Shown: positions 29,708 to 59,940, counted from the first letter of the stretch. The stretch is DNA of 64,000 nucleotides from Nitrospinaceae bacterium (GCA_023271875.1 JALPWY010000001.1:6091-70090), one strand, 5' to 3'. Notes: generated by a model from the letters alone, not told the origin. Numbers and translations are program-made.

Positions 29708-30724
29708 TCAACCTTCCGCGTATGAAAACATTTTTTCTACGCAACTTAGAGCATTCTTTTGAACCTTAGAATCAAGTTCAATGACATTATAGGAAGTTGG
29801 TTTTTCAAGTGCATTAAGAATATTCTCTAAAGAATTAGCCTTCATGTATCGGCAGGTAGTGCAGGTGCCTACAAATTGCTTGTCTGGAAATTCTGATTCC
29901 AAAATTCCCGTCAATCCACATTCTGTTAGTATAAAAAAAGTTTTTCGGTCAGATTCACGCACATAACTTAGCATACCACTAGTTGATCCTACGTAGTCAG
30001 CCTTGTCTACCACATCAGGTCTACATTCTGGATGTGCCAAAATTTCTACCCCCGAGAAATTCTTCCTCACTTGGTCAACGCTTTCTGGTTGGTACTCTTC
30101 GTGGACATAGCAGGTTCCGTCATACAACTCAATGTCTTTTCGCACTCCATTTTTCTTTAAATATTTTTTTATATTTTCGCCCATCAACCGATCTGGTAAA
30201 AAATAAATCTGATCATTTTCAATCCGCTCTATTACCTTATATACATTGGATGAGGTAACGCATGTATCACATAGTGCTTTTACTTCAGCCGTAGTATTTA
30301 TATAACAAACAAATGTGTGGTGCGGAAATTTTGCACGCAAATTTTTAACATCTTCAGCAGTGATTCCATCTGCTAAAGTACAACCTCCATCAGGATTTGG
30401 GTCTAGCACTACCTTGTCTGGATTTAGAATTTTAGCTGTCTCCGCCATGAAACGAACCGATGCAAAAACAATCACTTCGGCATTTGACTCCCGTGCCTTT
30501 TTAGCTAAACCGTACGAATCACCCATATGATCCGCTACACCGTACAGGATTTGGGGTGCAACATAATTGTGCGCCAAAATGATGGCATTTTTCTCCTGTT
30601 TGAGTGTCTCGATGCGTTGAATTATCGTTAAGAGCTCCTCACAACTCTGTTCAGTAAATCGACAAAACGGATTCCCCACTTGAATATCTTTAAGCTTGGC
30701 GTAAAGTTGTTGAGAGGTAATCAT
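29708..30724 (-). CDS. nadA: quinolinate synthase
   Basis: ILAHNYVAPQILYGVADHMGDSYGLA and conserved Cys positions typical of NadA. The likely start is ATG 30724 (MITSQQLYAKL), because the longer track ORF overlaps the HIT gene. Confidence 0.9.
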   Translation of the reverse strand: MITSQQLYAKLKDIQVGNPFCRFTEQSCEELLTIIQRIETLKQEKNAIILAHNYVAPQILYGVADHMGDSYGLAKKARESNAEVIVFASVRFMAETAKILNPDKVVLDPNPDGGCTLADGITAEDVKNLRAKFPHHTFVCYINTTAEVKALCDTCVTSSNVYKVIERIENDQIYFLPDRLMGENIKKYLKKNGVRKDIELYDGTCYVHEEYQPESVDQVRKNFSGVEILAHPECRPDVVDKADYVGSTSGMLSYVRESDRKTFFILTECGLTGILESEFPDKQFVGTCTTCRYMKANSLENILNALEKPTSYNVIELDSKVQKNALSCVEKMFSYAEG

Positions 30725-30729
30725 TGGGA

Positions 30730-31074
30730 TTAACCTGGCGGCCACTTTAAAGAGCGCCCACCCAAAAGGTGATAATGAATATGAAAAACCGACTGTCCGG
30801 CTTCCACTCCACAATTAACTACTATTCGGAATCCAGTCGTATCTAATCCCTTTTGCTTTGCGAGCTCGTTAGCCACAGAATAAATTGAGCCTATGAGCGC
30901 GTGATCATCTTCTTTGATTTCTAATATAGTGGAGAAATGTTTTTTAGGGATAATTAGAAAATGGATTGGAGCCTGCGGATTAATATCCTTAATGGCAAAA
31001 ATGTTACCATCATCATAAACTTTTTCTGCAGGGAGATCCCCCTTATCAATCATGCAAAACAAACATTCACTCAT
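30730..31074 (-). CDS. HIT-family (HinT-like) nucleotide hydrolase
   Basis: Histidine triad HIHYHLLGG and C-terminal LKWPPG. Confidence 0.85.
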   Translation of the reverse strand: MSECLFCMIDKGDLPAEKVYDDGNIFAIKDINPQAPIHFLIIPKKHFSTILEIKEDDHALIGSIYSVANELAKQKGLDTTGFRIVVNCGVEAGQSVFHIHYHLLGGRSLKWPPG

Positions 31075-31111: not shown

Positions 31112-32584
31112 CTAGTAGGTTCCTTTATAGGGAGTTGATTCTTGGCCTCCGTGTTTCTCCATATTTTGAAGGTAGTTTCGTATTTCCTCTTTGTAGGAAA
31201 TAAAAGGATCAAGCATTAAAAATGGTGCTTCATTCCTGCCAAACCGAAATCCTATCCAATCTATAAGATATAAAGACTCACTATTCACATCTACAAGAGT
31301 CTTGACTAACTCGCCTCTCCCATCAGCACGCGTACCCCTTGGAGGAATAGTCTTTGCATACTCTATAGCACCATCGTTTGTTTTTCTTACAGCTTCTCCT
31401 GTGCCTTCCAGACTCCAGTAAAGGCCACTGTTCTTATTAATATTATGATATTCCAAGTCAAGACTCTTCAGCCATGGATCATGCCAATCTAAGTTTTCTT
31501 CTTTCCTAAATTCGGAGAGCATCCAATATTTTGTCGCCCAATCAACACGGCCTATTAACGCTTCAGGTCCTTTAGACAAATCATTCAACACCGAATCCCA
31601 CTCATGTATAATCCAGTCCGTCTCACGATTCATTCCAGCTAGGTGCTTCCTCGCAGTTTGCATCATATCTATTTGTAACTCGAGTGCCGTTGTGTGGCGT
31701 CCATTTCTTAAAACTAATTCCCATTTAAATTCTTGATCTCGTGATATCGCCCGCATGGTCTCCACTGATTCGGCCAGTATCCAGTCAGGATTGGCAATAT
31801 CCTGCTCCATGAGCTCAAGCATAAGAGTGGTGGTTCCCATTTTCATAGCGGTTGCAAACTCGCTCATATTTGAGTCACCAACTAATAAATGGATCCTTCG
31901 GTACTTACTGGGGTCTGCCAGCGGTTCATCGCGAGTGTTGACTATAGAGCGGTTATACTGAACCCATCGGTAGAACTCATTTGGGATATGATCTGCCCTT
32001 TGAGAAATCTGAAAATCAACATTAGCTTCTGCTTCCTCGACAAAGTTGCCCTCCCAGTCGCGAAAAGGATGAGGGTTACACGCGCCAATTCTCCCTGCGC
32101 CGCAATAAATTTGTCGGGTAACTAAAAATGCTGACAGCAATTTCAGGTTTTCGCGTTCATCAAAGGGAAACCCTCGGCCAACCAAATAATTCTCATGACA
32201 ACCAAACGTCGCGTTAGTTTCAAGATCGACATTGTTTTTAATAATGCCTATTGAGTCTCTCCAACCGAGCTCTTCCACCGCATCTTGAATCAGTGTATCC
32301 CCCGCGCGATCATAGGTAACGAGATCGGTCAGAGTAAAGCATTCTGGCGAAGCGTATTCCAAGTGACCCATATCTAGATATATACGCCCGGCATTTAATA
32401 AGAAACCGCCGTTTTCAGGTGGTTCATCGTTGGCTCGGTAGTGCTGATCGAGAACCCCAAGTCTTGATGTTTTAAAGATGTGGTCTTTGATTCTAATTGC
32501 CGCTTCCACCGGATCAAGCTTAAATTCATTATCTTTGATCAGTAGGCCATATTCAGTTTCGATACCATAGATTCGATTTCTCAC
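31112..32584 (-). CDS. pafA: PafA-like modifier ligase (Pup/UBact ligase family)
   Basis: GIETEYG N-terminus, FLLNAGRIYLDMGHLEYASPEC, INTRDEPLAD, YRRIHLLVGDSNMSE. It lacks the ~30-residue insertion seen in the upstream paralog. GTG start 2 nt after the prcA stop. Confidence 0.8.
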   Translation of the reverse strand: MRNRIYGIETEYGLLIKDNEFKLDPVEAAIRIKDHIFKTSRLGVLDQHYRANDEPPENGGFLLNAGRIYLDMGHLEYASPECFTLTDLVTYDRAGDTLIQDAVEELGWRDSIGIIKNNVDLETNATFGCHENYLVGRGFPFDERENLKLLSAFLVTRQIYCGAGRIGACNPHPFRDWEGNFVEEAEANVDFQISQRADHIPNEFYRWVQYNRSIVNTRDEPLADPSKYRRIHLLVGDSNMSEFATAMKMGTTTLMLELMEQDIANPDWILAESVETMRAISRDQEFKWELVLRNGRHTTALELQIDMMQTARKHLAGMNRETDWIIHEWDSVLNDLSKGPEALIGRVDWATKYWMLSEFRKEENLDWHDPWLKSLDLEYHNINKNSGLYWSLEGTGEAVRKTNDGAIEYAKTIPPRGTRADGRGELVKTLVDVNSESLYLIDWIGFRFGRNEAPFLMLDPFISYKEEIRNYLQNMEKHGGQESTPYKGTY

Positions 32585-32586
32585 AA

Positions 32587-33381
32587 CTATTGAATCACCT
32601 CTAATTTTAAAGCAGAAATTTCACTTTCACTCAATGTGCGATAAAGACACTTGCGTCCCGTATTATTGTTGAGAACTGCCGCTTCAAGGCTCCAACTGTC
32701 AAATGCTTCTTTTAGATCAGTTGGAATGTCTTCCGTTTCCTCCTCAGCCTGATCATTGTCTTCAACTGATGAATTTGCATCTTCTTCTAGTTTAGGTTTC
32801 TTACGGCCTTCCTCCCACATACGCAACGCTGATTGAATTGATTTATCTAAATCCAATAACATAAAATCGGTGCTTTCTATTGCTTTTTGTATTCGTTCTC
32901 TCACTTTACTATCACCCGCAATAACGGTTCCTTTTTTAAATTTTTCCCAGTAACCGTCATAGTTGACTCGAAAAAATTCGGCACTCCCTTCATGGTTTAT
33001 TTCAGCAAGTAACATTTGAATCAGATAAGGGGCCCGTTGAATTTCTTCGAAGTTTTGCTTGAGTGCCGGTGCGAGTCCAAATTGTAGAAGCCTTCCAATG
33101 GTTACGTCCTCTGATGAACGGTTGAATCCTTCAGCATGTGCCATATCCAGAAGTGTCATACGCAAACGTTCGACATCTGCAGGGTGGCCTAACCCACCTA
33201 GAGCAATACGATCATAAATTTCAAAAATTTTTCCAGGTTGCGGAGAAAACCCGATAATAAGCGCCCCTTCATTATAAGGAACCCCTATAACTGGCTGTCC
33301 CTTAAACAGCTTTTCACGAACATAACTATGGCGCGTAGAAATCGCTTCCATCCAACGAAAAGGCTCTTCAAACATTTTCAA
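32587..33381 (-). CDS. prcA: 20S proteasome alpha subunit
   Basis: Alignable by eye to actinobacterial PrcA (…IFEIYDRIALGGLGHPADVERLR…YLIQMLLAEI…FFRVNYDG). The start is TTG 33381 or ATG 33375, immediately at the prcB stop. Confidence 0.85.
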   Translation of the reverse strand: MKMFEEPFRWMEAISTRHSYVREKLFKGQPVIGVPYNEGALIIGFSPQPGKIFEIYDRIALGGLGHPADVERLRMTLLDMAHAEGFNRSSEDVTIGRLLQFGLAPALKQNFEEIQRAPYLIQMLLAEINHEGSAEFFRVNYDGYWEKFKKGTVIAGDSKVRERIQKAIESTDFMLLDLDKSIQSALRMWEEGRKKPKLEEDANSSVEDNDQAEEETEDIPTDLKEAFDSWSLEAAVLNNNTGRKCLYRTLSESEISALKLEVIQ

Positions 33382-34178
33382 CTCCTGCTCATAGAAGATT
33401 CGTAAATAGACTCCATATGATCGTCTGAAATAAACTGATACCCATCTTTAGTAATCTTCGCAATGATAGGGTAAAGTTTGTCTTCGGGCCGGGCTTGCCC
33501 TGTGGCTGAATCAAATTGAGCAGCTGTCTGTAGTAGACGTATTGATAAAGAGGTCGCTTCTTCCTCTGACCTTTCTCCTAATGGGCTACTACCCCAAAGA
33601 TTCTCGTGTTCTAAAACACCCTTTATCATAGGAGATCCAGACCCTGTTGCGACATAAGTCAGTATCTGAAATTCAGCTCCCAGCATATCGTAAAAATAAA
33701 GAAATACTTTTTTCTGTTCTTTATCATAAATAGCAAAAAGAGGGCTCACCCCACCCACACCCTGCAAAGCCATCCCCACATTATCTTTGAGCAGTTTTGA
33801 CAAAGCACGGACTTTGCCTTCCGTGCTCATGGTCCGCAATTGTGAACGCCTATAATATTCAAAGTTATGTGATAGGATGCGTGCCATTTCGAATGCTGTA
33901 GCCGGAACCCCTGCGATAGCCATTAATGAAAAATCATCTATGGGGATTACTTTATCGCAACGATCATACATGATCGCATTTCCAGCAGTAGCTCTGCGAT
34001 CACCCGCCACAATTATTCCATCTTTATAATGGAAAGCCAGGACTGTGGTTCCTTGAGGGATTTCTAAAGCCTTATTTTCAAAAATACCTGAAGACACTTT
34101 CTGTGGATAGTGACCTGATTTTTTAAGGAGCTCGAGAAAGTCGCCAGAAGTGTGGATTCGTTCAAGGTTTTCTGTCAT
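33378..34178 (-). CDS. prcB: 20S proteasome beta subunit with propeptide
   Basis: Propeptide followed by the catalytic-Thr context PQG/TTVLAFHYKDGIIVAGDRRAT. ATG overlaps the stop of the small modifier ORF (ATGA). Confidence 0.9.
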   Translation of the reverse strand: MTENLERIHTSGDFLELLKKSGHYPQKVSSGIFENKALEIPQGTTVLAFHYKDGIIVAGDRRATAGNAIMYDRCDKVIPIDDFSLMAIAGVPATAFEMARILSHNFEYYRRSQLRTMSTEGKVRALSKLLKDNVGMALQGVGGVSPLFAIYDKEQKKVFLYFYDMLGAEFQILTYVATGSGSPMIKGVLEHENLWGSSPLGERSEEEATSLSIRLLQTAAQFDSATGQARPEDKLYPIIAKITKDGYQFISDDHMESIYESSMSRS

Positions 34179-34345
34179 TGGCCGGTTCGTTGTTTGTAGT
34201 TTTCTGATTGTTTAGGGTCAACCCGTTTCATTCGCTTGAGAATATCATCACGACCCGGTCGTTCAACATTCGGACTAGATGGTCCTGATTCCTTGCGGTC
34301 GGGAGTAGGATCCTTTTTTTCTTCTCTTCTTAATGGATCGTTCAT
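34175..34345 (-). CDS. 56-aa UBact/Pup-type prokaryotic ubiquitin-like modifier (not in the ORF track)
   Basis: Read by hand: MNDPLRREEKKDPTPDRKESGPSSPNVERPGRDDILKRMKRVDPKQSENYKQRTGQ*. ATGA overlaps at both ends (dop-like stop, prcB start). C-terminal Gly-Gln. Occupies the position of pup in the canonical mpa-dop-pup-prcBA order. Confidence 0.75.
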   Translation of the reverse strand: MNDPLRREEKKDPTPDRKESGPSSPNVERPGRDDILKRMKRVDPKQSENYKQRTGQ

Positions 34346-35829
34346 AACCATGGGAATTGCTCCTTTTTGGAATTAATCAAATGTTCTACGTCAGCCGAGC
34401 TGACAACTTGAGAAAGATCTATAAAGTCACCGCCCGTAAACTCGATACCCGTCCAGTGAATATTTTTTATCTGATCCTCGCTGTTTGTAACGGCCAAGCC
34501 ACGCACCAGAGCCCTCGTATCTTCAGGTGGCTCTTTTATAGCGCGCTGAATTTCATCTTCAGAAAACATGGAGTATACATCACCTGCTTGCTCAAGTCCT
34601 CGGTACAAGCCTCTTTCTGGATCAAGATTATGATACTCTAAATCTAGGCTTTTTATCCAAGGATCATCCCAACCCACCCCTTCTGATTCAGTAAAACGGG
34701 TAAAAATATCTTTTTTTATTGCCCAATCAATTCGATCAGCTAGCTTTTCAGGGTGGTGTTTGAGTTCATTCAAAGTACGTGCCCATTCGCGGATAATCCA
34801 ATCCCTCTCTTTGCATTGCCCTGATAGATTTTTATCTGCTGCGTCAAGATAGAATTCTTGTATTTCAAGTGATGTTATCGTTTTGCCATTCCTACATTTC
34901 AAAGCAATAGTCCCTGTCTGGTCTCGAGAAATATTTTTAATATCATCAACTGGATTCTCTAGGGCCAAAGGCGATTCTAATTTATCTTCTCCAATTAGAG
35001 TCAAGATCAATCGAGTTGTTCCAACCTTCAAAGCAGTTGCATAAGGGGACATATTTGCATCACCTAGAATAAGGTGAAGTCGACGGTACTTGTCTTGTGT
35101 CGCATGGGGTTCATCCCGAGTATTAATAATAGGTCGTTGGGTCATCGTCTCTATACTCAATACCGTTTCTATAAAATCGGACCGCTGTGCAAGCTGGAGT
35201 CCACTAAATGAATTATCATCTTTAAGTTCAGTTCCGACCTTGCCAGCTCCTGCGTATAGTTGGCGAGTTATAAGAAACGGAACCAAACGTTCTACCCAAT
35301 GCTCAAAGGGAAGTCGACGTGATATGAGATAATTATCATGCGTACCGTAGCTATGCCCTAGATAGTCGGTGTTATTCTTGAATACGCAAACCCTACCAAC
35401 CTTGTCGTCTTGATTTCTTAGGTGAGCACACTCGGAAACAATGCGTTCACCGGCCAGATCATGCACCACTAATTGAAAAACACTGCCACATTCGGGGGTG
35501 CTATATTCTGGATGCGTGTGGTCATTATAAAACCTTGCTCCGTTTTCAAGTACCCGGTCGCGTTTCATCTCCCAATAACTGTAGGGACGTTTACGATCCT
35601 CAACGCAAAAAGCATCTTCTTCCTCGTCCTGTGCCAGAGAAGGCACATTAAACCCTCGCATATCCTGATGAGAACGTTCTCGAGAATAAGCCCAATTACA
35701 AAATTCACTTTTCATCTCACAGCGACGCACTAGGGCCATTGACTCCTCTACGACATCGTAACTTTCTACCTCATTGCGCACGATCCCATATTCTGTTTCT
35801 AGGCCTAACAAAGGAACTGAAGAACTCAT
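34342..35829 (-). CDS. dop: Dop-like deamidase/depupylase homolog
   Basis: LETEYG, NGARFYNDHTHPEYSTPEC, INTRDEPHAT, YRRLHLILGDANMS. It carries an extra ~30 residues between ETEYG and NGAR (WAYSRERSHQDMRGFNVPS...), resembling the Dop-specific loop. It lies directly upstream of the modifier gene. Confidence 0.8.
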   Translation of the reverse strand: MSSSVPLLGLETEYGIVRNEVESYDVVEESMALVRRCEMKSEFCNWAYSRERSHQDMRGFNVPSLAQDEEEDAFCVEDRKRPYSYWEMKRDRVLENGARFYNDHTHPEYSTPECGSVFQLVVHDLAGERIVSECAHLRNQDDKVGRVCVFKNNTDYLGHSYGTHDNYLISRRLPFEHWVERLVPFLITRQLYAGAGKVGTELKDDNSFSGLQLAQRSDFIETVLSIETMTQRPIINTRDEPHATQDKYRRLHLILGDANMSPYATALKVGTTRLILTLIGEDKLESPLALENPVDDIKNISRDQTGTIALKCRNGKTITSLEIQEFYLDAADKNLSGQCKERDWIIREWARTLNELKHHPEKLADRIDWAIKKDIFTRFTESEGVGWDDPWIKSLDLEYHNLDPERGLYRGLEQAGDVYSMFSEDEIQRAIKEPPEDTRALVRGLAVTNSEDQIKNIHWTGIEFTGGDFIDLSQVVSSADVEHLINSKKEQFPWL

Positions 35830-37445
35830 ATGATCGATCGGTTGAGAGTTTCAGCGGCAGCCTGGTCAGACTGGTTGGGTCGACGCACCCTTACCACATC
35901 GCGCGGATCTAGGTCAAGCAATTGAAGCCAATCCTCCAGATTTGATTCTGCGGGAAGCAAGTTGCCATCCGTAAACTCAGTTTTTAGACATTCTGTTAAA
36001 TCTTTGGACAAAATTTTTAACTCTTTTCCATCGATGGCTCTTTCAATTGCTTTTTCTTTGGTTCTTTTGACTATCCCCTCAATAATCGCACCAGAAATAA
36101 AGTCCTTCCAGTAAAGATTTTTGAGTTTACCAGTGCGTAGGGTAAGAACCAAAACCTTCTGTCGAGAGCTCTTCCTAAATAGGGCATCGAGAAATGGCTG
36201 AGTCATTTGATCAAGGTTTTCGTGCTCTCGAGGTAAATTAGGTTTAAGATAAACCCTAAGTATCGCATTGCAATCTTCACGATTGGGACGACCCACTTTT
36301 ATCTTTCGATCGATTCGGCCAGGTCTCAAGATGGCAGGATCTATCAGGTCGGGCCGGTTAGTGGCGAGAATAACAACAGCTTCTCGAAGCGATTGGATTC
36401 CATCCATCTCAGCACAGAACATAGGTACCAGCGTATTGCTGATATTATTTCCACGCATGGCCTGCCTTGTTCCAAGAATAGATTCTGCTTCATCAATAAA
36501 AATAAAAGGCACTTGGCCCTTTTCCTTATAATCACGCGCCTTTTTAAAAATTTCCCTTACTTTACGCTCCGACTCCCCAAGCCACATGTTAAGAATTTCG
36601 GGACCTTTGACATGGATAAATCGACCTTCGAGATCTTGATTAGATTCTTTTTCCTTAAGTTGACGAATGATGTCTGAAAGAATAGCTCTGCCAATGAGGG
36701 TTTTACCACAACCCGGAGGTCCGTAAAATAAAAAACCCTTTGGCAATTGGTATTCCATGGTTTTAAGAATATCCTTATGTAAAATAGGGTACTCGATAAC
36801 CTTGCGCACTTCCTCAATAACTTTAGATTGCCCTCCTACCTCGGACCAGTCGATTTGAGCCAAATCGTCTTCGATAACAACGCCAGACGTTCTCTTAGGT
36901 AGCCGAGCCAAAATAACCCGTTGGTTCGGGTCGAGAATGACCTCATCACCCACCTTCAATGTCTCTGTTTCCAGATCGGGGTGATTCGAGGCTAAGGTTT
37001 CGCTGTTGGCAGCTTGCCCGGTTATCAACCACTGTCCATCTGTTAATCGCGTGGTGATGCGAGCAATCGGCCCTTGCTCAGGCTTAGGCAACTTAGCTAT
37101 AGCAACAAACCCCTCGTTGAGCGCAACTTGATCACCAGGCTGAAGAGTTTCTTCTTCAAGAATTTCTGGAGAGACAGCAGCCTGATACTCTGTACCTCCA
37201 ACTACTAAACGATAAAGACCTCCCTTTCCCAGTCCCAACACAGTTCCAATACGGTGGGCAGGGGACTTTAACTTAGCAACGGTTTCCTCGAGATTTTTAA
37301 TTTTTAAAGCATATTGCTGTGATACCTGTTGCGCCTGAAATAATGCGTCTCGCAAATCAAAAATCTTCTCTTGGAGCTTAGGATTATCAGCCGTTTCACC
37401 CAAAAGTTGGTCAATCAGTTCGATAATATGGGGTTGGTCACCCAT
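35826..37445 (-). CDS. mpa: proteasome-associated AAA+ ATPase (Mpa/ARC family)
   Basis: N-terminal coiled coil, OB-like region, Walker A GPPGCGKTLIG, Walker B FIFIDEAES. ATGA overlap with the dop-like gene. Confidence 0.9.
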   Translation of the reverse strand: MGDQPHIIELIDQLLGETADNPKLQEKIFDLRDALFQAQQVSQQYALKIKNLEETVAKLKSPAHRIGTVLGLGKGGLYRLVVGGTEYQAAVSPEILEEETLQPGDQVALNEGFVAIAKLPKPEQGPIARITTRLTDGQWLITGQAANSETLASNHPDLETETLKVGDEVILDPNQRVILARLPKRTSGVVIEDDLAQIDWSEVGGQSKVIEEVRKVIEYPILHKDILKTMEYQLPKGFLFYGPPGCGKTLIGRAILSDIIRQLKEKESNQDLEGRFIHVKGPEILNMWLGESERKVREIFKKARDYKEKGQVPFIFIDEAESILGTRQAMRGNNISNTLVPMFCAEMDGIQSLREAVVILATNRPDLIDPAILRPGRIDRKIKVGRPNREDCNAILRVYLKPNLPREHENLDQMTQPFLDALFRKSSRQKVLVLTLRTGKLKNLYWKDFISGAIIEGIVKRTKEKAIERAIDGKELKILSKDLTECLKTEFTDGNLLPAESNLEDWLQLLDLDPRDVVRVRRPNQSDQAAAETLNRSII

Positions 37446-37484: not shown

Positions 37485-37514
37485 ATTCTAAATCGAAAAA
37501 AAATTGCACGTCAA
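37485..37514 (-). promoter_or_regulatory. candidate sigma70 promoter of the proteasome operon (TTGACG-N18-TAGAAT)
   Basis: On the minus strand, -35 TTGACG lies at 37514-37509 and -10 TAGAAT at 37490-37485, about 40 nt upstream of the mpa ATG. Confidence 0.35.
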
Positions 37515-37680: not shown

Positions 37681-37749
37681 TTAGAAAGTCGATTTCATCA
37701 AAGTAGGATCGACGCAAAGTAATTGCTGCTTTACTTTTTTACCTTTTTT

Positions 37750-39075
37750 ATGGACCACATTAGGCCTTCAGCCAGTATCGATAAGTGCATCTTAAGCTTC
37801 AGCCATGATCGGTACACTTCACGAAAAAAGGCAAACGCTGCCGCTATTGCAAAAGCCGAACGTGAAATTGCATCTAACAGCAATGGTGTTAGCCACCTTA
37901 TCCTGCGAGCAACTGATGACAAAATAGACCATCTAAAGTTTCTCTTCCTTATCAACGGTATTCCTGTCATGTGTTACGCGCTAGGGAACCTACTAATTTC
38001 CAGCCTCAAAGAAATCGTCATCATAGGTTCCGAAGAAGTGGAGCAAGTTGCCACTAATTTTTTAGAAACAGTGGGGACGCAAGGGAAAAAAGTATCGTTT
38101 GTCAGAGAAGACTCAAATAAGTTAAACCTTTTTAACACTATGCAGTTAGGAAAACACCGGTTGAATATTGAGCCAAATGAATTGATTTTATTCCAACCTG
38201 GCGACCTACCATTCATGTTCGATATTGAAGAAATCCTGAACGATAGCGACATTCAAAATTACAATTTGATTCTTTGGCTTAACTCCAGACAAATGATGTT
38301 CCCGAATCACCAGCATAATCCAGACAGCGAATTTGTTCGGCGTAACTATCACTACCGCGCCCTTTGTAAAGAAACAAACGAACTACATGAAGTCAAAGAA
38401 CCCAACATTTATCCAATCAACCTGTCCGCAGTAGATTCAGACATCATTGACCATCTGCACTCAACAAGAAAAGATGGAAATATAATTAAGGCCGGTATCC
38501 GAAAAGCACTTTCTATGCCATCAAGAATATTAAAACTACTTCCCATAATGGCACACCACGCACTACACTTCAGGTCTGATTTAAAGCAATTTCGCAAGGA
38601 AGATAAATACCTGTTTGGAATGCAAAGAGATAATTTTGATCGCGCTGTTTCGGTTTTATTAGATACTGAATTCATAACCAAATTCCATAGCGCCCCAGCA
38701 TTTGTTTCTGATGTAGACGCGCTGGAAGATTGGGAAGACTTTGAATCCCTTACACATTATGCCAATCTTAAACATGGGGAGGAAGGCCTAGCACATATTC
38801 ATCCTTTTGGTGAAGAATTACTCCGCTTTCGTGAAGAACAAATGCCTAGCCTGAAAACCAAAATAGATATGTACAATAATTTCCCAGCCTACATCAATTC
38901 ATTTTACCAATCCCTCAAAATGAACCGTGTGCCTTTCCCGAATGGAAGTCGATACGTCCCACATAAGACTAACCATGAAAAAAACGGGTCTGCTCAAAAA
39001 ACAAAACATGCTTTTTCTTGGTATTCCAATAAATGCAACGCCGTTAAACTAGGGCGTGTTAGTCAAATTATTTAA
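37750..39075 (+). CDS. MobA-like/GT-A-fold nucleotidyltransferase-family protein with long C-terminal extension (hypothetical)
   Basis: INGIPVMCYALGNLL...EIVIIGSEE, LFQPGDLPFMF and VSDVDALEDWEDF resemble NTP_transf_3-type motifs, but the canonical G-x-G-x-R loop is not evident. Likely start ATG 37750. Confidence 0.45.
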   Translation: MDHIRPSASIDKCILSFSHDRYTSRKKANAAAIAKAEREIASNSNGVSHLILRATDDKIDHLKFLFLINGIPVMCYALGNLLISSLKEIVIIGSEEVEQVATNFLETVGTQGKKVSFVREDSNKLNLFNTMQLGKHRLNIEPNELILFQPGDLPFMFDIEEILNDSDIQNYNLILWLNSRQMMFPNHQHNPDSEFVRRNYHYRALCKETNELHEVKEPNIYPINLSAVDSDIIDHLHSTRKDGNIIKAGIRKALSMPSRILKLLPIMAHHALHFRSDLKQFRKEDKYLFGMQRDNFDRAVSVLLDTEFITKFHSAPAFVSDVDALEDWEDFESLTHYANLKHGEEGLAHIHPFGEELLRFREEQMPSLKTKIDMYNNFPAYINSFYQSLKMNRVPFPNGSRYVPHKTNHEKNGSAQKTKHAFSWYSNKCNAVKLGRVSQII

Positions 39076-49237: not shown

Positions 49238-52200
49238 ATGCTATTAAAAAGTCTGGAATTAGACGGCTTCAAGTCATTTGTCGACGGAACTCACATCGAT
49301 TTTACCTCCGGGTTTACGGCTATCGTGGGTCCAAACGGATGCGGAAAAAGTAATGTTTCCGATGCCATCCGATGGGTAATCGGGGAGCAAAGTTCTAAAT
49401 CGCTACGTGGAACAAAATCCGAAGACCTTATTTTTAACGGTAGCTCCACCAGAAAGCCTGTTAACAGGGCCGAAATCTCACTAACCCTTAGCAGTGTTCC
49501 ACAAGGAATACGAATTGCGAACGTACCTAACGTTGCAGATGAAGTTAAGGTCACCCGTTGTTATCACCGTTCCGGCGAAAGTGAATTTTATATCAACCAA
49601 GTGCCATGCCGTCTGAAAGATATTACTGACTTCTTGCTGGATGTGGGTATCAGCCCAAAAGTCTTATCTGTAATCGAGCAGGGACATATTCAAGATATAA
49701 TCGCCTCGAAACCGGAAAACCGACGCATCTTGATAGAAGAAGCCGCTGGTATTTTAAAATTCAAACATCGCAAAAACGAGGCGCTACGCAAGCTAGATAC
49801 TTCAACTCAAAACCTTGAACGCATTAGTGATATCGTGCAGGAGTTGGGTCGTCAGGCAGAATTCTTAAAACGCCAAGCAGCAAAGACTGAACGCTATAAA
49901 AAATTCCAAGGAGAAATCAAAGAACTCTCCCTAAAATTGTTTGCCAAAAAAATTCGCCAATATACAGCTGACCTAAAAGTAATAGAAGAAGAGATCTCGA
50001 CCCAAGCTGAAAATAAAACCGCGAAAAATACTCGGGCTTCTTTTTTGGACAATCAAATCACTCAATTGAGCATTGAAATTGAAGAAACTCTCGGATTACT
50101 GAATGAAAAAAAAGAAAACGTGTATCAGTTGACGAATAAAATAAGTAAAAACGAACATACTATTGAACTAAAAAAATCACAGATTGATCAGGCGGAAACA
50201 GATATTCGCTCTGCAAAAAATGATGTCACTCATCTGCAGAAAGAAATAGCTGACCAAGCGGATCAAGCTAAAAATCAACGCGCCCAACTAGGAATTTTAT
50301 CTGAAAAAATAAGCAGTGTAGAAAATAAACTGGAAGAGTTGGAGAAACTAAAAAATTCCCGACAGTTACTATATAAAAGTACAGAGCAAAAGCGCCAACA
50401 AGTAGCATCGGGAACAGACCATTTGAATTTACTTAAGGAAGATTATCTAACGCAATCATCTTTACTGACATCGCTTAAAGAGTTGCGAAACAAATTCGAA
50501 GGATTTGAAGATGGTGTTCGATCATTAATGAACTATAACGAAAACGGTGGTCGCTTGAACGGACTCCGGAAGGTCTTGGCAGATGTCTTAAAAACACCTG
50601 TAGAATACGAAGCGGCTATCACGGTAGCGCTTGGAGAAAAACTTCAAAGCGTAATCGTTAATTCTTATGACGATTCTGTTGAAGCAATAACATATTTAAA
50701 AGAAAGCTCCTCGGGTCGAGGCTCTTTTATTCCTTTAAATATGAAGGCAAACCAAGACCCACCAGTCCATTTAAATGGCAATCCGGGCATACTCGGAAAA
50801 GCATTAAATTTCATAGAATGCGAGAAGGAGTATAAACAGGTCATTGAAATGTTGCTCCACAACGTGGTGCTCGTCACCGACCTTTCAACAGCAATACAGG
50901 TTTTTCAAAATCCAGAGTTTAACGGGACAGTAGTCACTCGAAATGGCGAAATGATTGATACTAAAGGAATGGTTTTTGGTGGTTCAGTTGATGAAAAAAA
51001 TACCTCCAACTTGCTTTCTCAGAATCGTGAAATGGAAGAACTTGCAACCAGGGTAAACCAATTGAACGAAAAATATCAAAATGCCCTTAAGGTTTTAGAT
51101 GAAAATAAAAACGTTTTGGAAAAAATGGAACTGGAAGTTGAAGAAAAAAGCCAGGCTATTCATCAGCTTGAATTAGCTTTAAAAGTTCAAATAGCGTCTC
51201 TAAAAGGGAAAAAAGAGAACACTTTAACCGAAATCAATCGACTAGACCTCCAACAAGATAACCATCGACACCAGATCAGCAAACGGGAAAATAACACGGA
51301 AGAAAGTCAGCAAAAAATAAATGACACTCAACAAGCAATAGGGATAATTGAAAAGGAAATTCTTGAGAGTGTGCGAGAAAAGGACCGACTTGAAGAAGAA
51401 GCTATAACCGATGAGGAAACCCTAAGAGAAAAAGAAGAATCTGTTAAGGGGATGGAGCAAGAATCAAAAGATCTTTCAAGAAAAATTCAAGAGCTTACGG
51501 AAACAATATCAAAAATTGAACTCAAGCAGTCTGAAATTAAAATGCAACTCGCTCATATTGAAGAGCGCACATTCGAAGATTTTAACGTGACGCTTCCGGA
51601 ATTATTGAACCGCTCCCCTGAAGAGTTTGACGTCCAAGAAGTTGAACAGAAAACTCGAGAATTGAAAGAAAAAATAGGGCGCATGGGTGAAGTGAATTTG
51701 GCTGCATTATCAGACTTCCAGACAACAAACGAACGTTACCAGTTTCTAAAAACGCAACAGGAGGACCTAGCCGACTCTATTCAGCTTCTTCACCAGACTA
51801 TTGAACGAATCAACCGCACTACCAAACAAAGATTTCTTGATACCTTTGAGAAAGTTAACGAAAATTTTAAGGAAATTTTTGCCCACCTATTTCGTGGAGG
51901 AAAAGCGACACTTTCTCTAACTGATGAATCTAACCCTCTAGAGTCGGGGGTTGAAATCAGCGCTAATCCTCTTGGAAAACGTATGCAAAATATAACCCTT
52001 CTTTCTGGAGGGGAAAAAGCAATGACCGCGATCGCTCTTGTGTTTTCTGTTTTTAAAGTACGGCCCAGTCCATTTTGCCTTTTGGATGAAGTTGACGCCC
52101 CTCTTGACGAAGCCAATGTCGTTCGGTTTCAGGAAATGCTCAAGCAAATGTCTGAAAAAACTCAGTTCATCCTCATCACCCACAACCAGAAAACCATGTC

Positions 52201-52276
52201 ATTCGCTGATGTGCTATACGGAATCACCATGGAAGAATGTGGTGTATCAAAAGCGGTTTCTGTAGACCTCAACTGA
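49238..52276 (+). CDS. smc: chromosome partition protein SMC
   Basis: MLLKSLELDGFKSF start. Walker A GPNGCGKSNV. Long coiled coils with a central hinge. Signature LSGGEKAMTAIAL. Walker B CLLDEVDAPLD. Confidence 0.9.
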   Translation: MLLKSLELDGFKSFVDGTHIDFTSGFTAIVGPNGCGKSNVSDAIRWVIGEQSSKSLRGTKSEDLIFNGSSTRKPVNRAEISLTLSSVPQGIRIANVPNVADEVKVTRCYHRSGESEFYINQVPCRLKDITDFLLDVGISPKVLSVIEQGHIQDIIASKPENRRILIEEAAGILKFKHRKNEALRKLDTSTQNLERISDIVQELGRQAEFLKRQAAKTERYKKFQGEIKELSLKLFAKKIRQYTADLKVIEEEISTQAENKTAKNTRASFLDNQITQLSIEIEETLGLLNEKKENVYQLTNKISKNEHTIELKKSQIDQAETDIRSAKNDVTHLQKEIADQADQAKNQRAQLGILSEKISSVENKLEELEKLKNSRQLLYKSTEQKRQQVASGTDHLNLLKEDYLTQSSLLTSLKELRNKFEGFEDGVRSLMNYNENGGRLNGLRKVLADVLKTPVEYEAAITVALGEKLQSVIVNSYDDSVEAITYLKESSSGRGSFIPLNMKANQDPPVHLNGNPGILGKALNFIECEKEYKQVIEMLLHNVVLVTDLSTAIQVFQNPEFNGTVVTRNGEMIDTKGMVFGGSVDEKNTSNLLSQNREMEELATRVNQLNEKYQNALKVLDENKNVLEKMELEVEEKSQAIHQLELALKVQIASLKGKKENTLTEINRLDLQQDNHRHQISKRENNTEESQQKINDTQQAIGIIEKEILESVREKDRLEEEAITDEETLREKEESVKGMEQESKDLSRKIQELTETISKIELKQSEIKMQLAHIEERTFEDFNVTLPELLNRSPEEFDVQEVEQKTRELKEKIGRMGEVNLAALSDFQTTNERYQFLKTQQEDLADSIQLLHQTIERINRTTKQRFLDTFEKVNENFKEIFAHLFRGGKATLSLTDESNPLESGVEISANPLGKRMQNITLLSGGEKAMTAIALVFSVFKVRPSPFCLLDEVDAPLDEANVVRFQEMLKQMSEKTQFILITHNQKTMSFADVLYGITMEECGVSKAVSVDLN

Positions 52277-52344
52277 CTCACCCCTTCCTACACAATCTAT
52301 TCTAGTTAAATTTTCGCATTATGGTGCGGATTTCATCGCTTTGC

Positions 52345-52372
52345 TTGATTTCAAGGTAATGATCTGTAAAAT
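52345..52372 (+). promoter_or_regulatory. candidate sigma70 promoter (TTGATT-N16-TAAAAT) for the LRR gene
   Basis: -35 at 52345-52350, -10 at 52367-52372, about 55 nt upstream of ATG 52426. Confidence 0.35.
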
Positions 52373-52425
52373 CTTAAGAATAGAATAAAATTTTAGCAAA
52401 GCTCCTTGCCTGAGTTATTCATTCA

Positions 52426-53775
52426 ATGAAAGAAGCAAAAGATATTGATGACAGCCTTGAATTTTTACGTTCGTTTGAAAAAAACGCAAACAATACTGAG
52501 CTTGGAGAACTCATCCTCCAAAGACTCGACCATCATAATAAAAGCCTCAACTTACAAGGGAACCGGTTTACAGAAACTGAATTTCAAAGTCTATTTTCAT
52601 TCGAATCTCTAAAGCATCTAAAATCAATTGACCTTAGTGAAACAGGGATGAATTCTAAGGCAATTAAACATCTTTGTTCATCTAAGTGGCTACACCACAT
52701 AACATCGCTACCATTAGCCAATAATAACTTAGACGATGAAGGAATATTTTTATTATCCAAAACAAACTGCCTCCCAAAGCTTACGTCTCTAGATTTATCA
52801 AGCAATGAGATTGGGGCATTAGGAGCAAAAGTTCTATCTCTTTCAAAATCACTTAATAGGATTTGCAGCCTAAATATTTCCTACAATCGGATTGAACCCT
52901 TAGGAGTCGACTCTTTAGCAAATTCTGATTTTGGACGACAATTAAAGTTTTTGCAACTTCGCGATACTTGCCTTGGAAACGAAGGAATGAAAAGTTTCTC
53001 TTCCTTCCGTTTAAACGAACTAGAATCACTTGATCTTTCAGACAATGCAATTTCTGATGCAGGATTAGAAACGTTAGCAACATCTAACTCGTTTCCAAAT
53101 CTAAAGAAATTAGTGCTGAACAATAATCACATAGGAGATGATGGTATTTATGCCCTATCCCAATCGAATATGTTTTGCAATCTTGAATCGTTGTTTCTTG
53201 CTAATAACGATTTAACAACTGATAGTGCAATTTCAATATCAGAATCACGTACTCTTACCCAGTTAAAAAGTCTCGACATTAACAATAATGATATTCGTGC
53301 TGAAGGAACAAAAGCGTTATCTGAATCGCCTAATTTAAAATCTATCGAATATCTGGACTTGGGAGAAAATAGATTAGGAACCGAAGGGGCAAAGGCTCTT
53401 GCTCAAAGTCCTAATATGAAAACATTAAAATTTTTGCGCTTAAATAATAATGACATTAAAGATGCGGGGATATCTGAAATGGCTAAATCAAAATATTTCA
53501 CTTCTCTCGAAAATCTTTTTTTAGAAAATGAAAATTGGATTCATTCTGAAGGGGCAAAATCTCTTGCAGTTTCAACTTCTTTCCCGTTGTTACGAATACT
53601 TGTACTTACTTTGAACGCAATAGGAGATGAAGGTGCTTTTCATTTAGCTGGAGAAAATAATTTAAATACTTTGGAGCAACTCAACGTCGCTGGAAATAAA
53701 ATTAGCCCAAGAGGCGAAGATGCCCTTAGAAACTCTCCTTATCTTCAGCACCTTAAAAATCTAGAACTGGTCTAG
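52426..53775 (+). CDS. ribonuclease-inhibitor (RNI)-type leucine-rich repeat protein
   Basis: About 14 tandem ~28-aa repeats of the form L..L.L..N.IGDEGA..LA.S....L (e.g. LKKLVLNNNHIGDDGIYALSQSNMFCN). No signal peptide. Confidence 0.8.
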   Translation: MKEAKDIDDSLEFLRSFEKNANNTELGELILQRLDHHNKSLNLQGNRFTETEFQSLFSFESLKHLKSIDLSETGMNSKAIKHLCSSKWLHHITSLPLANNNLDDEGIFLLSKTNCLPKLTSLDLSSNEIGALGAKVLSLSKSLNRICSLNISYNRIEPLGVDSLANSDFGRQLKFLQLRDTCLGNEGMKSFSSFRLNELESLDLSDNAISDAGLETLATSNSFPNLKKLVLNNNHIGDDGIYALSQSNMFCNLESLFLANNDLTTDSAISISESRTLTQLKSLDINNNDIRAEGTKALSESPNLKSIEYLDLGENRLGTEGAKALAQSPNMKTLKFLRLNNNDIKDAGISEMAKSKYFTSLENLFLENENWIHSEGAKSLAVSTSFPLLRILVLTLNAIGDEGAFHLAGENNLNTLEQLNVAGNKISPRGEDALRNSPYLQHLKNLELV

Positions 53776-53939
53776 ATAGAATTAATGCTGCTGCTTTAAT
53801 ATCAACTAAATTTAATTAATCATCTGGTACTCGTCTACCAAGTATCTATTCCCTCAAAGTAATCAGAAAATAAAACTACTAGAGTGAGGTCAAGAGCACT
53901 ATTTATCAGTCATTTTTTGATAGGAAGTTAGCTAAAATA

Positions 53940-54743
53940 TTACTTCCTGGCTAGGAGATTAAATGTGTTCTGAGTTTTTAAGACACTAGTTGCAAGGAAA
54001 GAGCTGAAGCCAAACCGTCTGGCGCAATATTTCTCAACTTTTAGGACTTTTAACCCTTCTTTGGTGAATAAGTCCGTTAGTCTGTGTGGATCTATTCCAC
54101 CAAATTGTCTTTGATAATCTGCGTGGTGATACTCATTCTCTAAAATCGATATTCTTTGCCGCGTCATTTTTCGTCGATAAAAAGCCTCATCAATATTAGC
54201 TAACGTCTTATGCATACTATAACGAATGGGTGTATTGATATTCTGTTTGAGAGGTTCAAAGAATATAAGAAACACTCCTCCAGGAATTAATCGATCGCAA
54301 TACATTTTTATCACCGATTCAAAATCGTACAGATGATGCAATAAAGCTGAGACGATAATCGCAGAGTATTTCTTATCATCGATATTAGCGAATGTTTCTA
54401 CATCACTGACAACTAATCGCGAACACTTCCTGTAATCCTTTGGGATTCGGCCTTCCAACACTCTTATCATTTCGGTTGATAGGTCGACTCCTGTTATTTC
54501 ATATCCTCGCTTTAAAAACTCGAGATACAAATAACCTGTCCCACATCCCAGCTCTAAAATACTTTCTCCCGAAGGATTCATCTCAAAACAAACACGATCG
54601 ATTGTTTTTCTTAGTATACGAGCTTGATAGAAATTGGTTTGTTCAGGGTGTCTATCAAGATAAAACTGATCTTCAAGTTTGTGGACACGTTTATTTTCTT
54701 CTAAAACCTTTTCTCTAGTCAGCGTCGATTCGGGAATTCTCAT
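53940..54743 (-). CDS. class I SAM-dependent methyltransferase
   Basis: Motif I ILELGCGTGYL, followed by an acidic motif II (GVDLS). Confidence 0.8.
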   Translation of the reverse strand: MRIPESTLTREKVLEENKRVHKLEDQFYLDRHPEQTNFYQARILRKTIDRVCFEMNPSGESILELGCGTGYLYLEFLKRGYEITGVDLSTEMIRVLEGRIPKDYRKCSRLVVSDVETFANIDDKKYSAIIVSALLHHLYDFESVIKMYCDRLIPGGVFLIFFEPLKQNINTPIRYSMHKTLANIDEAFYRRKMTRQRISILENEYHHADYQRQFGGIDPHRLTDLFTKEGLKVLKVEKYCARRFGFSSFLATSVLKTQNTFNLLARK

Positions 54744-54751
54744 TTTATTAA

Positions 54752-55597
54752 TTATTTGCTCAAAGTATTAATAAAAAAACGTTTCTCTGCCTTACTGCTT
54801 TCACACTCGTTACAATTAGCACAAGTATCAGGGAATTCACCTTTTAGATGCTGTTCACGCAGAAGATCCATCTTTTCGTTTTTCCACAAATTTGGGACTG
54901 TTTCATTTTGAGCACTCCCAATCATGAGGTTTGCATTGTAGTCAACGCAACAGGGAATTACTCTACCGTCCCATAGAACAACTAACTTCCCGTAGTCTTT
55001 CCCAAAAGGTTCTGGACAAACTTCGGTGCGAGGACTAGTGATTAGTTTTGGCTGTAAACGAACATGATCTACAATTTTTTCCCAGTGGGTAATATAATCC
55101 TCCGCATCCCCTTCCGTATCTTCTTCAACAGTAAAAACCACACCCATTTTTAATTTGGGACGTCTTTTCTCTTTTACTTTCTTTAGCTTATTAATATTTT
55201 GTTCGATGTTTTGTAGTTCTACCCCTCTTACGCGCTTAAAGGTCTCCGCCGAACCGTCAATCGAAAAACGAATGATATCTAGTTTACTGTCAACAATCTG
55301 ATCAATCATTTTATTCGTAAGGAGGGTCCCGTTAGTATTCATAACTACGTAATTGACCCCTTTGTTTTTGGCGTATTCAATCATCCTAAAAATATCCTTG
55401 TGCAAAAGGGGCTCTCCCCAATTATGCATGCACAAGTGTTCTAGGTCTGGACTGTCATCGATTATTTTTTTAAATAAATCAAATTCCATGAATCCACCTT
55501 CACGAGTCATACCCTCTGTTACAAAGCAAAAGGTGCAACGTAAGTTGCATGTATTTGTCGGTTCTATAATTAGAGATGTTATTTTTTTTACTTCCAT
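54752..55597 (-). CDS. radical SAM enzyme with Cys-rich SPASM/twitch-like C-terminus
   Basis: CNLRCTFCF (CX3CX2C). C-terminal CCVDYN...CANCNEC. ATG 55597 shares one base with the GT2 stop. Confidence 0.8.
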   Translation of the reverse strand: MEVKKITSLIIEPTNTCNLRCTFCFVTEGMTREGGFMEFDLFKKIIDDSPDLEHLCMHNWGEPLLHKDIFRMIEYAKNKGVNYVVMNTNGTLLTNKMIDQIVDSKLDIIRFSIDGSAETFKRVRGVELQNIEQNINKLKKVKEKRRPKLKMGVVFTVEEDTEGDAEDYITHWEKIVDHVRLQPKLITSPRTEVCPEPFGKDYGKLVVLWDGRVIPCCVDYNANLMIGSAQNETVPNLWKNEKMDLLREQHLKGEFPDTCANCNECESSKAEKRFFINTLSK

Positions 55598-56526
55598 CAA
55601 TCGATTACCTTGTGCACGATGTATTCAGGTCGATTTTGTATTTTCAAATGAACCCGACCAAGATATTCACCAAGAAAGCCAATAGACAATAATTGAACCC
55701 CTGCAAAAAAAGAAAATACCGCTGATAATACAACAAAGCCTTCAATTAAAATTCCAGCTACCAAGCGCTGATACAACAGAAACATCATTATAGAAAAGCC
55801 CACACCAGCACCCAATAACCCCAAATAAGTAACCAGGCGTAATGGAAAATTAGAATAACCCGTAATCAAATCCCAGGTTAAGCGAAGGAGTGGCAAGACT
55901 CCGTATTTTGTTTGGCCCATTTTTCTTAAATGATGATCAACTTCCACATGTACAGTGGGAACTGCCATCCAACTCATCAATACTGCCATATAGCGGGATC
56001 GATCTTGACATTGATCAATTTTTTCAATAACGCTTCGACGCATTGCGCGAAAAGAACTCAAATTTAATTTAAAACGGTTTCCAAACAGTACCTGTGCTAA
56101 AGAATGGAGCACCTTCGACCCTAAAATCCTTAATACACTATCCCGACGTTTACGCGGAATAGTTACAACAAGGTCGACTTCATCAGTGAAAGCACCTAAC
56201 AACCTCTTTATTTCTTCTGGTGGATTTTGCAAGTCTGAATCAATTTGAACAACAATATTGCCCCGGCTTTCTCGAAAACCAGCCAGAACAGCAGCTTGCT
56301 GACCAAAGTTCCTAGTAAACTTTACAACACGTATATTAGAATCTATTTTTTTCCATTTGCATATCAATTCGAATGAATTATCCGAACTACCATCGTCCAC
56401 AAATAGCAACTCGTACGATTTACCCCAGCTTTCGGCCTCTTTCTTTAGACGGGGATAAAACTCATGTAATACCAGCTCCTCGTTAAAAACTGGAATAACT
56501 ACTGAGACCTGTAATGAATCCATCAT
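55597..56526 (-). CDS. family 2 glycosyltransferase, polyprenyl-phosphate sugar transferase type (ArnC/GtrB/DPM1-like)
   Basis: SVVIPVFNEE, VDDGSSDNS, QIDSDLQNPPEE, plus two C-terminal TM helices. Confidence 0.85.
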   Translation of the reverse strand: MMDSLQVSVVIPVFNEELVLHEFYPRLKKEAESWGKSYELLFVDDGSSDNSFELICKWKKIDSNIRVVKFTRNFGQQAAVLAGFRESRGNIVVQIDSDLQNPPEEIKRLLGAFTDEVDLVVTIPRKRRDSVLRILGSKVLHSLAQVLFGNRFKLNLSSFRAMRRSVIEKIDQCQDRSRYMAVLMSWMAVPTVHVEVDHHLRKMGQTKYGVLPLLRLTWDLITGYSNFPLRLVTYLGLLGAGVGFSIMMFLLYQRLVAGILIEGFVVLSAVFSFFAGVQLLSIGFLGEYLGRVHLKIQNRPEYIVHKVID

Positions 56527-56663
56527 AAATCCTTAATTTTAACAAAATGCGTGGCACCGAATTCTTCCCGGGAAATCTAATTATTAACTAATGGTTTTGA
56601 TTCTCTTCGGTCAATATATTGCGCTCAAAAAGTGAAGGTACTTTTTTCAGAGCAGACCAAATT

Positions 56664-58082: not shown

Positions 58083-58095
58083 ATATATCTATTCC

Positions 58096-59214: not shown

Positions 59215-59218
59215 TAGA

Positions 59219-59926
59219 TTAATTAGTATTCCAGTTCATTAAAACATCAAGGCTCTTATCACCAGCATTAAACAGAAGATCAACCAACGACATATTTGGT
59301 ATAAATCCAGAATATTGTTGCGAGTATCTCGGGTGATCGTACTCCTGATATTCCAACTCAACTCCCTTTTGTGAAAAGTCATCCCCTGATAAATAATCAT
59401 GGGCAAGACCTCCGGTAAGGTAGTGAGTTGCACCCATCTTTTGACAAAGGTTTAAAATTCGGTCAGCTTTTACCCCTTCCACCGAAATGGTGGATGACTT
59501 AAAAGTCTGAGTAGTTATTTTCAGAACCTCCTTAAGATATCCCGTCGTCTCGTAACATAAGTCTAGCAAAAACTCCCATCGCTTTTGATAAACAGAATCA
59601 AAATAGGGGTAATAGTTTTCAAAAAATGGGGCGTTCGAATAATTAAATCTGATTGCAGCGCAATGTTTTTTACTCCAATTGGTGGAATTATCGATACGCG
59701 TATCCTTGAGTAATTGCGTGTAAAGATTTTTTTGCTGTACAGGAACCGTCAACCAAGCCCAACCTTCATTAGTTCGTATCTTATTACGGTTTCTCCAATC
59801 ACGTCTCGTATATTGAACATCATCGAGATACACGAATTGATCCGCTCGCTCCATCTGCTCAAAATAACCAATCCACGGCAGATAGGATGGCTGCAATATC
59901 ACCACACGATTTGCCGGATAGGTCAC
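59219..59926 (-). CDS. WbqC-family protein
   Basis: VVILQPSYLPWIGYFEQM matches the WbqC N-terminal signature. I prefer GTG 59926 as the start because the track start at 59989 overlaps rfbB by 49 nt. Confidence 0.7.
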   Translation of the reverse strand: MTYPANRVVILQPSYLPWIGYFEQMERADQFVYLDDVQYTRRDWRNRNKIRTNEGWAWLTVPVQQKNLYTQLLKDTRIDNSTNWSKKHCAAIRFNYSNAPFFENYYPYFDSVYQKRWEFLLDLCYETTGYLKEVLKITTQTFKSSTISVEGVKADRILNLCQKMGATHYLTGGLAHDYLSGDDFSQKGVELEYQEYDHPRYSQQYSGFIPNMSLVDLLFNAGDKSLDVLMNWNTN

Positions 59927-59940
59927 TGACTCAACTTCGC

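Follow-up and report, generated by a model that had tools for sequence, protein, structure and literature searches.

A predicted UBact modifier gene between the Dop-type and prcB genes of a Nitrospinaceae proteasome operon

A small gene in a proteasome operon

In a stretch of 64,000 nucleotides (nt) from a Nitrospinaceae bacterium (GCA_023271875.1, JALPWY010000001.1:6091-70090; hereafter, the window), the minus strand carries a cluster of genes coding, in this order, for a proteasomal AAA ATPase, a Dop-like protein, a small peptide that we assign to the UBact family, the proteasome subunits PrcB and PrcA, and a PafA-like protein, which overlap or lie 2 to 3 nt apart (Table 1). An original prediction, made from the DNA alone, had described the small gene as an unannotated modifier of 56 codons located between the dop-like and prcB genes, in the slot of pup, and the gene order (ATPase, Dop, modifier, PrcB, PrcA, PafA) is indeed pup-like, as had been claimed. 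Translation of the minus strand at 34175-34345 (ATG AAC GAT ... GGC CAA TGA) gave a complete open reading frame (ORF) and exactly the peptide proposed, MNDPLRREEKKDPTPDRKESGPSSPNVERPGRDDILKRMKRVDPKQSENYKQRTGQ. The overlaps on both sides can also be read from the sequence, since this second ATG (34345-34343) has two bases in common with the dop-like TGA (34344-34342), and the TGA of the small gene (34177-34175) has two in common with the prcB ATG (34178-34176; ATGA). The peptide ends in Gly-Gln, as had been noted (...YKQRTGQ), with the stop codon directly after RTGQ.

The ORF therefore stands as described, but not its start, which probably lies two codons upstream. In the mechanical ORF list the open frame begins with an ATG at 34351, giving 58 amino acids (aa; MVMNDPL...), and this is most likely the actual start because it is preceded by AGGAG, because Met1 is constant in the homologs and because most of them (100 of the 120 close homologs) have been called at 58 aa. 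The Met at position 3, on the other hand, gives way to Leu or Ile in several of them (MDLNDPL, MEINDPL, MVINDPL). The same AGGAG was found in six related loci (L001-L006). As for the gene being unannotated, this was true only of the first-stage ORF track, as public gene calls already include the identical protein. A plus-strand ORF in the same region (34236-34376, 46 aa, TTG start) was set aside, since both the matches to the family models and the codon positions of the substitutions fit the minus-strand frame.

Table 1 Features of the operon in the window
Feature	Coordinates	Strand	Details
Promoter-like TTGACG-18-TAGAAT	37485..37514	minus	Some 40 nt before the ATPase ATG; 10/12 matches in a consensus scan
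Proteasomal AAA ATPase (Mpa/ARC-like)	35826..37445	minus	539 aa, two OB domains; PF17758, PF16450, PF00004
Dop-type deamidase/depupylase homolog	34342..35829	minus	495 aa; PF03136, 510 bits
Shine-Dalgarno-like AGGAG	34360..34364	minus	8 nt upstream of ATG 34351, within the dop-like gene (3' end)
UBact gene	34175..34351	minus	58 codons plus TGA, MVMNDPLRREEKKDPTPDRKESGPSSPNVERPGRDDILKRMKRVDPKQSENYKQRTGQ; PF20513, NF033388, N-termini of homologs, purifying selection
PrcB, proteasome beta subunit	33378..34178	minus	266 aa; PF00227, 105 bits; best match TIGR03690
PrcA, proteasome alpha subunit	32587..33381	minus	About 262-264 aa, start approximate; PF00227, 27.6 bits; best match TIGR03691
PafA-type ligase homolog	31112..32584	minus	490 aa, starts with GTG; ends the cluster; PF03136, 428 bits

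The length of the ORF is by itself weak evidence, because the chance of a stop-free run of 58 codons, estimated from the local base composition, is about 0.03 per frame, and the weight has to be put on comparative evidence. The identical 58-aa protein was found on contigs whose operon, around this gene, shares only about 80% DNA identity with the window. In these loci the 177-nt gene shows 15 to 16 nucleotide differences, all of them synonymous and 14 to 15 of them at third codon positions. Comparison with 25 Nitrospinota species genomes showed mostly saturated synonymous sites (proportion of synonymous differences, pS, 0.7-0.9; of nonsynonymous differences, pN, 0.05-0.22), and the ratio of nonsynonymous to synonymous substitution rates (dN/dS) was 0.06-0.09 where dS was unsaturated and could be estimated. 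Judged by these comparisons, the ORF is a real gene of the translated type under strongly purifying selection. Noncoding readings of the region were rejected: it contains no tRNA or tmRNA, there is no Rfam family at the gathering threshold anywhere in the window, and no terminator-like site was found within 34100-34400.

Membership in the UBact family

The peptide scored well above the thresholds of both curated models, Pfam PF20513 "UBact" (72.5 bits, E = 2.3e-20; gathering score, 27.8) and the NCBIfam equivalog NF033388 "ubiquitin-like protein UBact" (69.8 bits, E = 1.7e-19; cut-off, 35), and on the strength of these matches it is a member of the curated UBact family. Searched with a profile, 1.84 billion representative proteins yielded 141 relatives, 115 of which end in R-[TS]-G-[QE], so that the C-terminal signature named in the original prediction is a real feature of the family; the remaining representatives are visibly truncated, frame-shifted or extended beyond the motif. 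None of the 141 ends in GGQ or GGE. Among the 120 close homologs, the C-terminus is RTGQ in 119 and RTGE in one. The terminal R-[TS]-G-[QE] is the most conserved stretch of the family, and in a cross-phylum alignment of 36 sequences, Y52, Q54, R55 and G57 were invariant and R40 and D45 at least 90% conserved. The second motif named there, a DxLKRMxxVDP core, was likewise borne out, as the window peptide contains L-K-R-M-K-R-V-D-P and L-K-R-M-x-x-V-D-P is largely conserved in the family.

One genome per GTDB species was scanned, and a relative turned up in at least 573 of these genomes. The identical 58-aa protein is present on at least 834 public contigs, where it is labeled "hypothetical protein" and carries a PF20513 tag in the gene table, and Nitrospinota proteins 76 to 88% identical to it are named "ubiquitin-like protein UBact" by NCBI; among ten distant representatives of the family, one Gemmatimonadota protein bore the name UBact. 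In the closest genome, Candidatus Nitromaritima sp. SCGC AAA288-L16 (DNA 92 to 93% identical over the aligned segments), the UBact protein is identical; a second metagenome-assembled genome is about 91% identical to the window in DNA. The conservation check suggested with the original prediction, which had named the lack of a conserved homolog and disruption of the ORF in relatives as evidence against it, found conserved homologs and an undisrupted ORF.

The window gene resembles known UBact genes in its matches to both curated models, the RTGQ end, the LKRMKRVDP core, the position between Dop-type gene and prcB and the Nitrospinota host. The differences are small. In the Nitrospinota clade the end reads Y-K-Q-R-T-G-Q, against Y-R-Q-R in most other lineages, the last residue is almost fixed as Gln in the close homologs, and in the lineage of the window the gene overlaps its neighbors on both sides; otherwise, we found no substantial difference.

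Comparison with Pup and other modifiers

When the window peptide was compared to Pup and UBact models, as the original prediction had proposed, it matched only the latter. The Pfam scan gave no match to PF05639 (Pup) at E <= 10, the UBact profile found no Pup chain in PDB at E <= 10, only chance matches such as titin and Sir3, and hhalign gave a probability of 0.65% (E = 0.088) between the 36-sequence UBact alignment and a narrow alignment of 22 Pup sequences, all of them from Mycobacteriales. Membership in the Pup sequence family was rejected on these three results, the last with the scope of its Mycobacteriales-only alignment. The contrast between a basic peptide and the acidic Pup had been correctly anticipated (isoelectric point [pI] of 9.8 and net charge of +4 versus pI of 4.05 and net charge of -12). 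The C-terminal half alone has a net charge of +5 and a pI of 10.5 and ends in T-G-Q, in place of the acidic, coiled-coil-forming half and the terminal G-G-[Q/E] of Pup.

The predicted structure is nevertheless similar to that of Pup. AlphaFold2, run with the family alignment, modeled residues 1-33 without secondary structure, followed by two helices (34-44 and 46-56) with a break at Pro46 and a C-terminal tail (mean predicted local distance difference test score [pLDDT], 72; predicted template modeling score [pTM], 0.32). Pup has been described as bihelical with a tail (PMC2588565; PMC3511204), and the layout predicted for UBact in this model is the one described for Pup. The two peptides are also similar in size (58 aa in UBact and 64 aa in Pup), and a disordered N-terminal half followed by a helical C-terminal half, as predicted for UBact, is the arrangement reported for Pup (PMC3511204). 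In summary, the peptide is Pup-like by every contextual criterion yet falls outside the Pup sequence family, and by its profile matches it is a member of UBact.

These comparisons also bear on the alternative that UBact is a divergent Pup, i.e., one family under a second name instead of a separate kind of modifier, which is how Iyer et al. regarded the nonactinobacterial homologs in 2008. Both occupy the same genomic slot with the same partners (Dop, PafA, AAA ATPase, PrcB and PrcA), drawn from the same enzyme families, and both have a terminal G-[QE] and, as far as can be predicted, a similar two-helix C-terminal half. In the hhalign comparison, the alignment pairs D-D-[IL]-L and the C-terminal Y-x-Q-[KR]-x-G-Q of the two families, but it is not significant, with the very low probability given above, and "Pup orthologs" have been recovered by PSI-BLAST/HMMer in nitrospirae, verrucomicrobia and planctomycetes (PMC2588565), whereas our searches found neither a PF05639 match, even at E <= 10, nor a PDB Pup chain with the UBact profile. 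The two differ as well in their termini (R-T-G-Q in UBact and K-G-G-Q in Pup), with the GGQ/GGE form missing from all of the 141 matches in 1.84 billion representatives, they are opposite in charge, and there is no significant sequence similarity between them. A common origin of this kind is plausible, although we do not favor it. It is in any case a matter of naming and ancestry and not of mechanism, and the functional reading is the same with either answer.

The likeness to ubiquitin and other beta-grasp modifiers (SAMPs, BilA) is restricted to the presumed role as a covalent tag tied to a proteasome. No beta-grasp fold is predicted for UBact, the operon has no genes of E1, E2 or E3 type, and attachment would use the gamma-carboxylate of a terminal Glu and not the carboxylate of a terminal Gly (mechanism from PMC3511204).

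Operon and neighboring genes

The ATPase encoded by the first gene of the operon can be aligned over its full length with Mpa chains (7PX9, 5KWA), and its best NCBIfam match is TIGR03689 pup_AAA (368 bits, below the cut-off). The ATG of the dop-like gene overlaps the ATPase stop by 4 nt, and its own stop overlaps the start region of UBact. The dop-like product is closer to Dop than to PafA both in NCBIfam (Dop, TIGR03688, 421 bits; PafA, 366 bits; both below the equivalog cut-offs) and in its best PDB match (Dop 4B0R, 307 bits; PafA, 255 bits). According to Hecht et al. (Table 1, PMC7947786), Dop is characterized by the residues D-H, S-T-P and a Dop-loop, and PafA by an alpha-loop of the type H-x-W-E-G-x-S-S-A-x-x-R-S, an L-D-V-G-S motif and no Dop-loop. 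The alignment of the window protein to 4B0R, YNDHTHPEYSTPE, shows the D-H beside the catalytic Asp and the S-T-P motif, as well as an insertion aligned with the Dop-loop but longer than it; the alpha-loop is only partly Dop-like.

The PafA-like protein, in turn, favors PafA in NCBIfam (TIGR03686, 337 bits, below the cut-off; Dop, 312 bits) and only its alignment to PafA (4B0T, residues 3-479) runs over the full length, that to Dop covering 61-427. It has L-D-M-G at the catalytic Asp (L-D-x-G motif) and no full Dop-loop. Its alpha-loop, H-I-P-N-E-F-Y-R-W-V-Q-Y-N, fits neither the PafA nor the Dop consensus, with only the His of the PafA signature kept and Pro in place of Ala74. Judging from these alignments and motifs, it is reasonable, if less secure, to regard this downstream paralog as the ligase.

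Translation of PrcB shows a predicted propeptide cleaved between QG and TTVLAF (...IPQG, followed by TTVLAFHYKDGIIVAGDRRATAGNAIMYDRCDKV...), with Thr1, Asp17 and Lys33 present. The prcA ortholog has been called at 262 aa in five related loci (L001-L005). The promoter-like sequence upstream of the ATPase gene could possibly be the operon promoter, although sites of this kind are as numerous in the region as expected from shuffled sequences. Recent horizontal transfer of the operon was considered and rejected, as its guanine-plus-cytosine (GC) content (0.41-0.44, against 0.36-0.43 elsewhere in the window) forms no compositional island; with so uniform a GC content, there is no sign of recent transfer.

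Beyond the last gene of the operon come HIT and NadA genes, and housekeeping genes lie on all sides. The mechanical ORF for NadA (29708-30814, minus strand, 368 aa, TTG start) overlaps the HIT-family gene (30730-31074, minus strand) by about 85 nt; NadA orthologs have been called at 338 aa, and the true start is probably about 30 codons downstream. Divergent from the operon lies an ORF of 450 aa (37723-39075, plus strand) with no Pfam match at E <= 1e-5, the same being true of its orthologs in related loci, where it is followed by a TonB-like gene. Farther away, just downstream of an SMC gene, the window encodes a protein of 449 aa (52426-53775, plus strand) that consists almost wholly of leucine-rich repeats (LRR_6, 153 bits), which looks unusual for a free-living marine nitrite oxidizer.

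Synteny in related loci

Eighty loci (L007-L086) were kept from the scan of one genome per GTDB species, under eight or more phylum labels, among them Nitrospinota, Armatimonadota, Verrucomicrobiota, Latescibacterota, Nitrospirota, Planctomycetota, Gemmatimonadota and Bipolaricaulota. Almost all of them, as well as L001-L005, show the order ATPase, Dop, UBact, PrcB, PrcA, PafA. UBact directly preceded prcB and in almost every case followed a Dop-type gene, and two enzymes of the ligase family were retained in nearly every locus.

A variant order was observed in ten Nitrospinota loci (L020, L021, L023, L025-L029, L034 and L035), namely, ATPase, Dop, (second PrcB-like), PrcA, UBact, PrcB, PafA. 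In these, prcA lies upstream of UBact and the second prcB-like gene is present only sometimes, but UBact still directly precedes a prcB gene.

The contig AQTY01000020.1 of Ca. Nitromaritima sp. SCGC AAA288-L16 (L006/L007) is collinear with window positions 44352-34170, down to the UBact stop, and then continues, inverted, with 51182-60839, from the middle of the SMC gene, so that prcB, prcA and pafA are missing there. This junction is most likely a chimera produced by multiple displacement amplification and not a biological rearrangement.

Proposed mechanism

In actinobacteria, Dop deamidates the terminal Gln of Pup, and PafA phosphorylates the gamma-carboxylate of the resulting Glu and ligates it to a substrate lysine; the coiled coil of Mpa binds the helical half of Pup and threads its disordered N-terminus, and Dop is also responsible for depupylation (PMC3511204). 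Family assignment, operon and synteny together make it very probable, in our analysis, that the ORF codes for UBact, that the six genes form a proteasome and tagging operon and that this system works by a mechanism like that of Pup. The genome is of a marine Nitrospinota near Candidatus Nitromaritima. The 58-aa peptide would be made with a C-terminal Gln, and the Dop-type paralog encoded just upstream would deamidate it to Glu. With Gln as the final residue of the tag in 119 of 120 Nitrospinota sequences, this step would be needed, and such a need fits the tight coupling of the UBact gene to the Dop-type gene. The PafA-type paralog would then activate the gamma-carboxylate of the Glu with ATP and attach it to target-protein lysines by an isopeptide bond. 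The AAA ATPase would bind the helical C-terminal half of the tag, thread its disordered N-terminal half and pass the substrate on to the 20S core of PrcAB, in which the beta subunit has the catalytic residues Thr1, Asp17 and Lys33, and the Dop-type enzyme might also remove the tag.

Several points weigh against this proposal. The literature that could be searched yielded no experimental study of a UBact, which leaves the statement of the original prediction that the biochemistry is essentially unexplored uncontradicted, and conjugation, deamidation and degradation are thus inferred, in contrast to Pup, for which conjugation has been demonstrated experimentally. Details of Pup recognition cannot simply be transferred to UBact, because there is no statistically detectable sequence similarity and the charge is inverted (pI 9.8 versus 4.05). 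Both paralogs of the ligase family score below their NCBIfam equivalog cut-offs, the alpha-loop of the PafA-like one fits neither the Dop nor the PafA consensus, and the ATPase is without the penultimate Tyr of the QYL docking motif of Mpa.

The peptide might instead not be conjugated at all and work in free form, as a regulator or adaptor of the ATPase-proteasome complex or as a factor in its assembly, as could be imagined for a small, basic and (by prediction) largely disordered peptide cotranslated with prcB, and the literature searched indeed offered no experiment proving that a UBact is conjugated. This would leave unexplained why R-[TS]-G-[QE], at the very end of the protein, is the most conserved part of the family, why the terminal residue alternates between Gln and Glu, exactly as required of a Dop/PafA substrate, and why two enzymes of the ligase family have been kept in nearly every locus, and we consider it quite improbable. 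Finally, the reading that the frame is open by chance in a spacer between genes, or is an artifact of overlap, for which only the composition estimate of about 0.03 per frame could be adduced, is already refuted by the conservation data, i.e., matches to curated models at about 1e-20, a dN/dS of 0.06-0.09 with saturated synonymous sites, an identical protein in loci with about 80% DNA identity, a Shine-Dalgarno-like AGGAG at the correct spacing and relatives in at least 573 species genomes.

ATPase C-terminus and a possible recognition code

The C-terminus of the operon ATPase (...LNRSII, 35826-35846, minus strand) is aliphatic, unlike the QYL end of Mpa. The last two residues were [IVM][IV] in all 70 UBact-linked ATPases examined (RSII, RNVI, GQVI, SQIV, NQII, SAII), and the penultimate Tyr of the HbYX-type motif was present in none of these 70. 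In Mpa and Bpa, the docking motif is of the HbYX type and contains this Tyr (QYL/GQYL; PMC4254994). From the basic binding half of the tag, which is acidic in Pup, and the aliphatic ATPase ends, one could speculate that UBact systems use a recognition code orthogonal to that of Pup, an idea that we put forward with considerable doubt. If both differences were functional, tag capture and docking of the ATPase to the 20S core would differ from the actinobacterial paradigm, and the code would belong to the UBact family as a whole and not to the window locus.

Significance

The finding is correct but already known, as the family, its signature, the operon and its presence in Nitrospinota are all recorded in curated databases and in the literature, and gene calls on hundreds of contigs from marine metagenomes already include the identical protein. 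The name UBact is reportedly due to Lehmann et al. in 2017, who are said to have listed Nitrospinae among its phyla. Pup-like genes beside PafA paralogs had been described in nitrospirae, verrucomicrobia, planctomycetes and deltaproteobacteria by Iyer, Burroughs and Aravind in 2008 (PMC2588565), and Hecht et al. (2020) listed homologs of Dop/PafA in Nitrospinae. PMC12751074 cites Lehmann, Udasin, Livneh and Ciechanover (2017, BBRC 483:946) for UBact. The window locus adds no new biology, and its value as a discovery is small. Its practical value is one of annotation, since filters for short ORFs miss the gene and some sources still give "hypothetical protein." The correct annotation is "ubiquitin-like protein UBact," with 58 aa and, most likely, its start at 34351.

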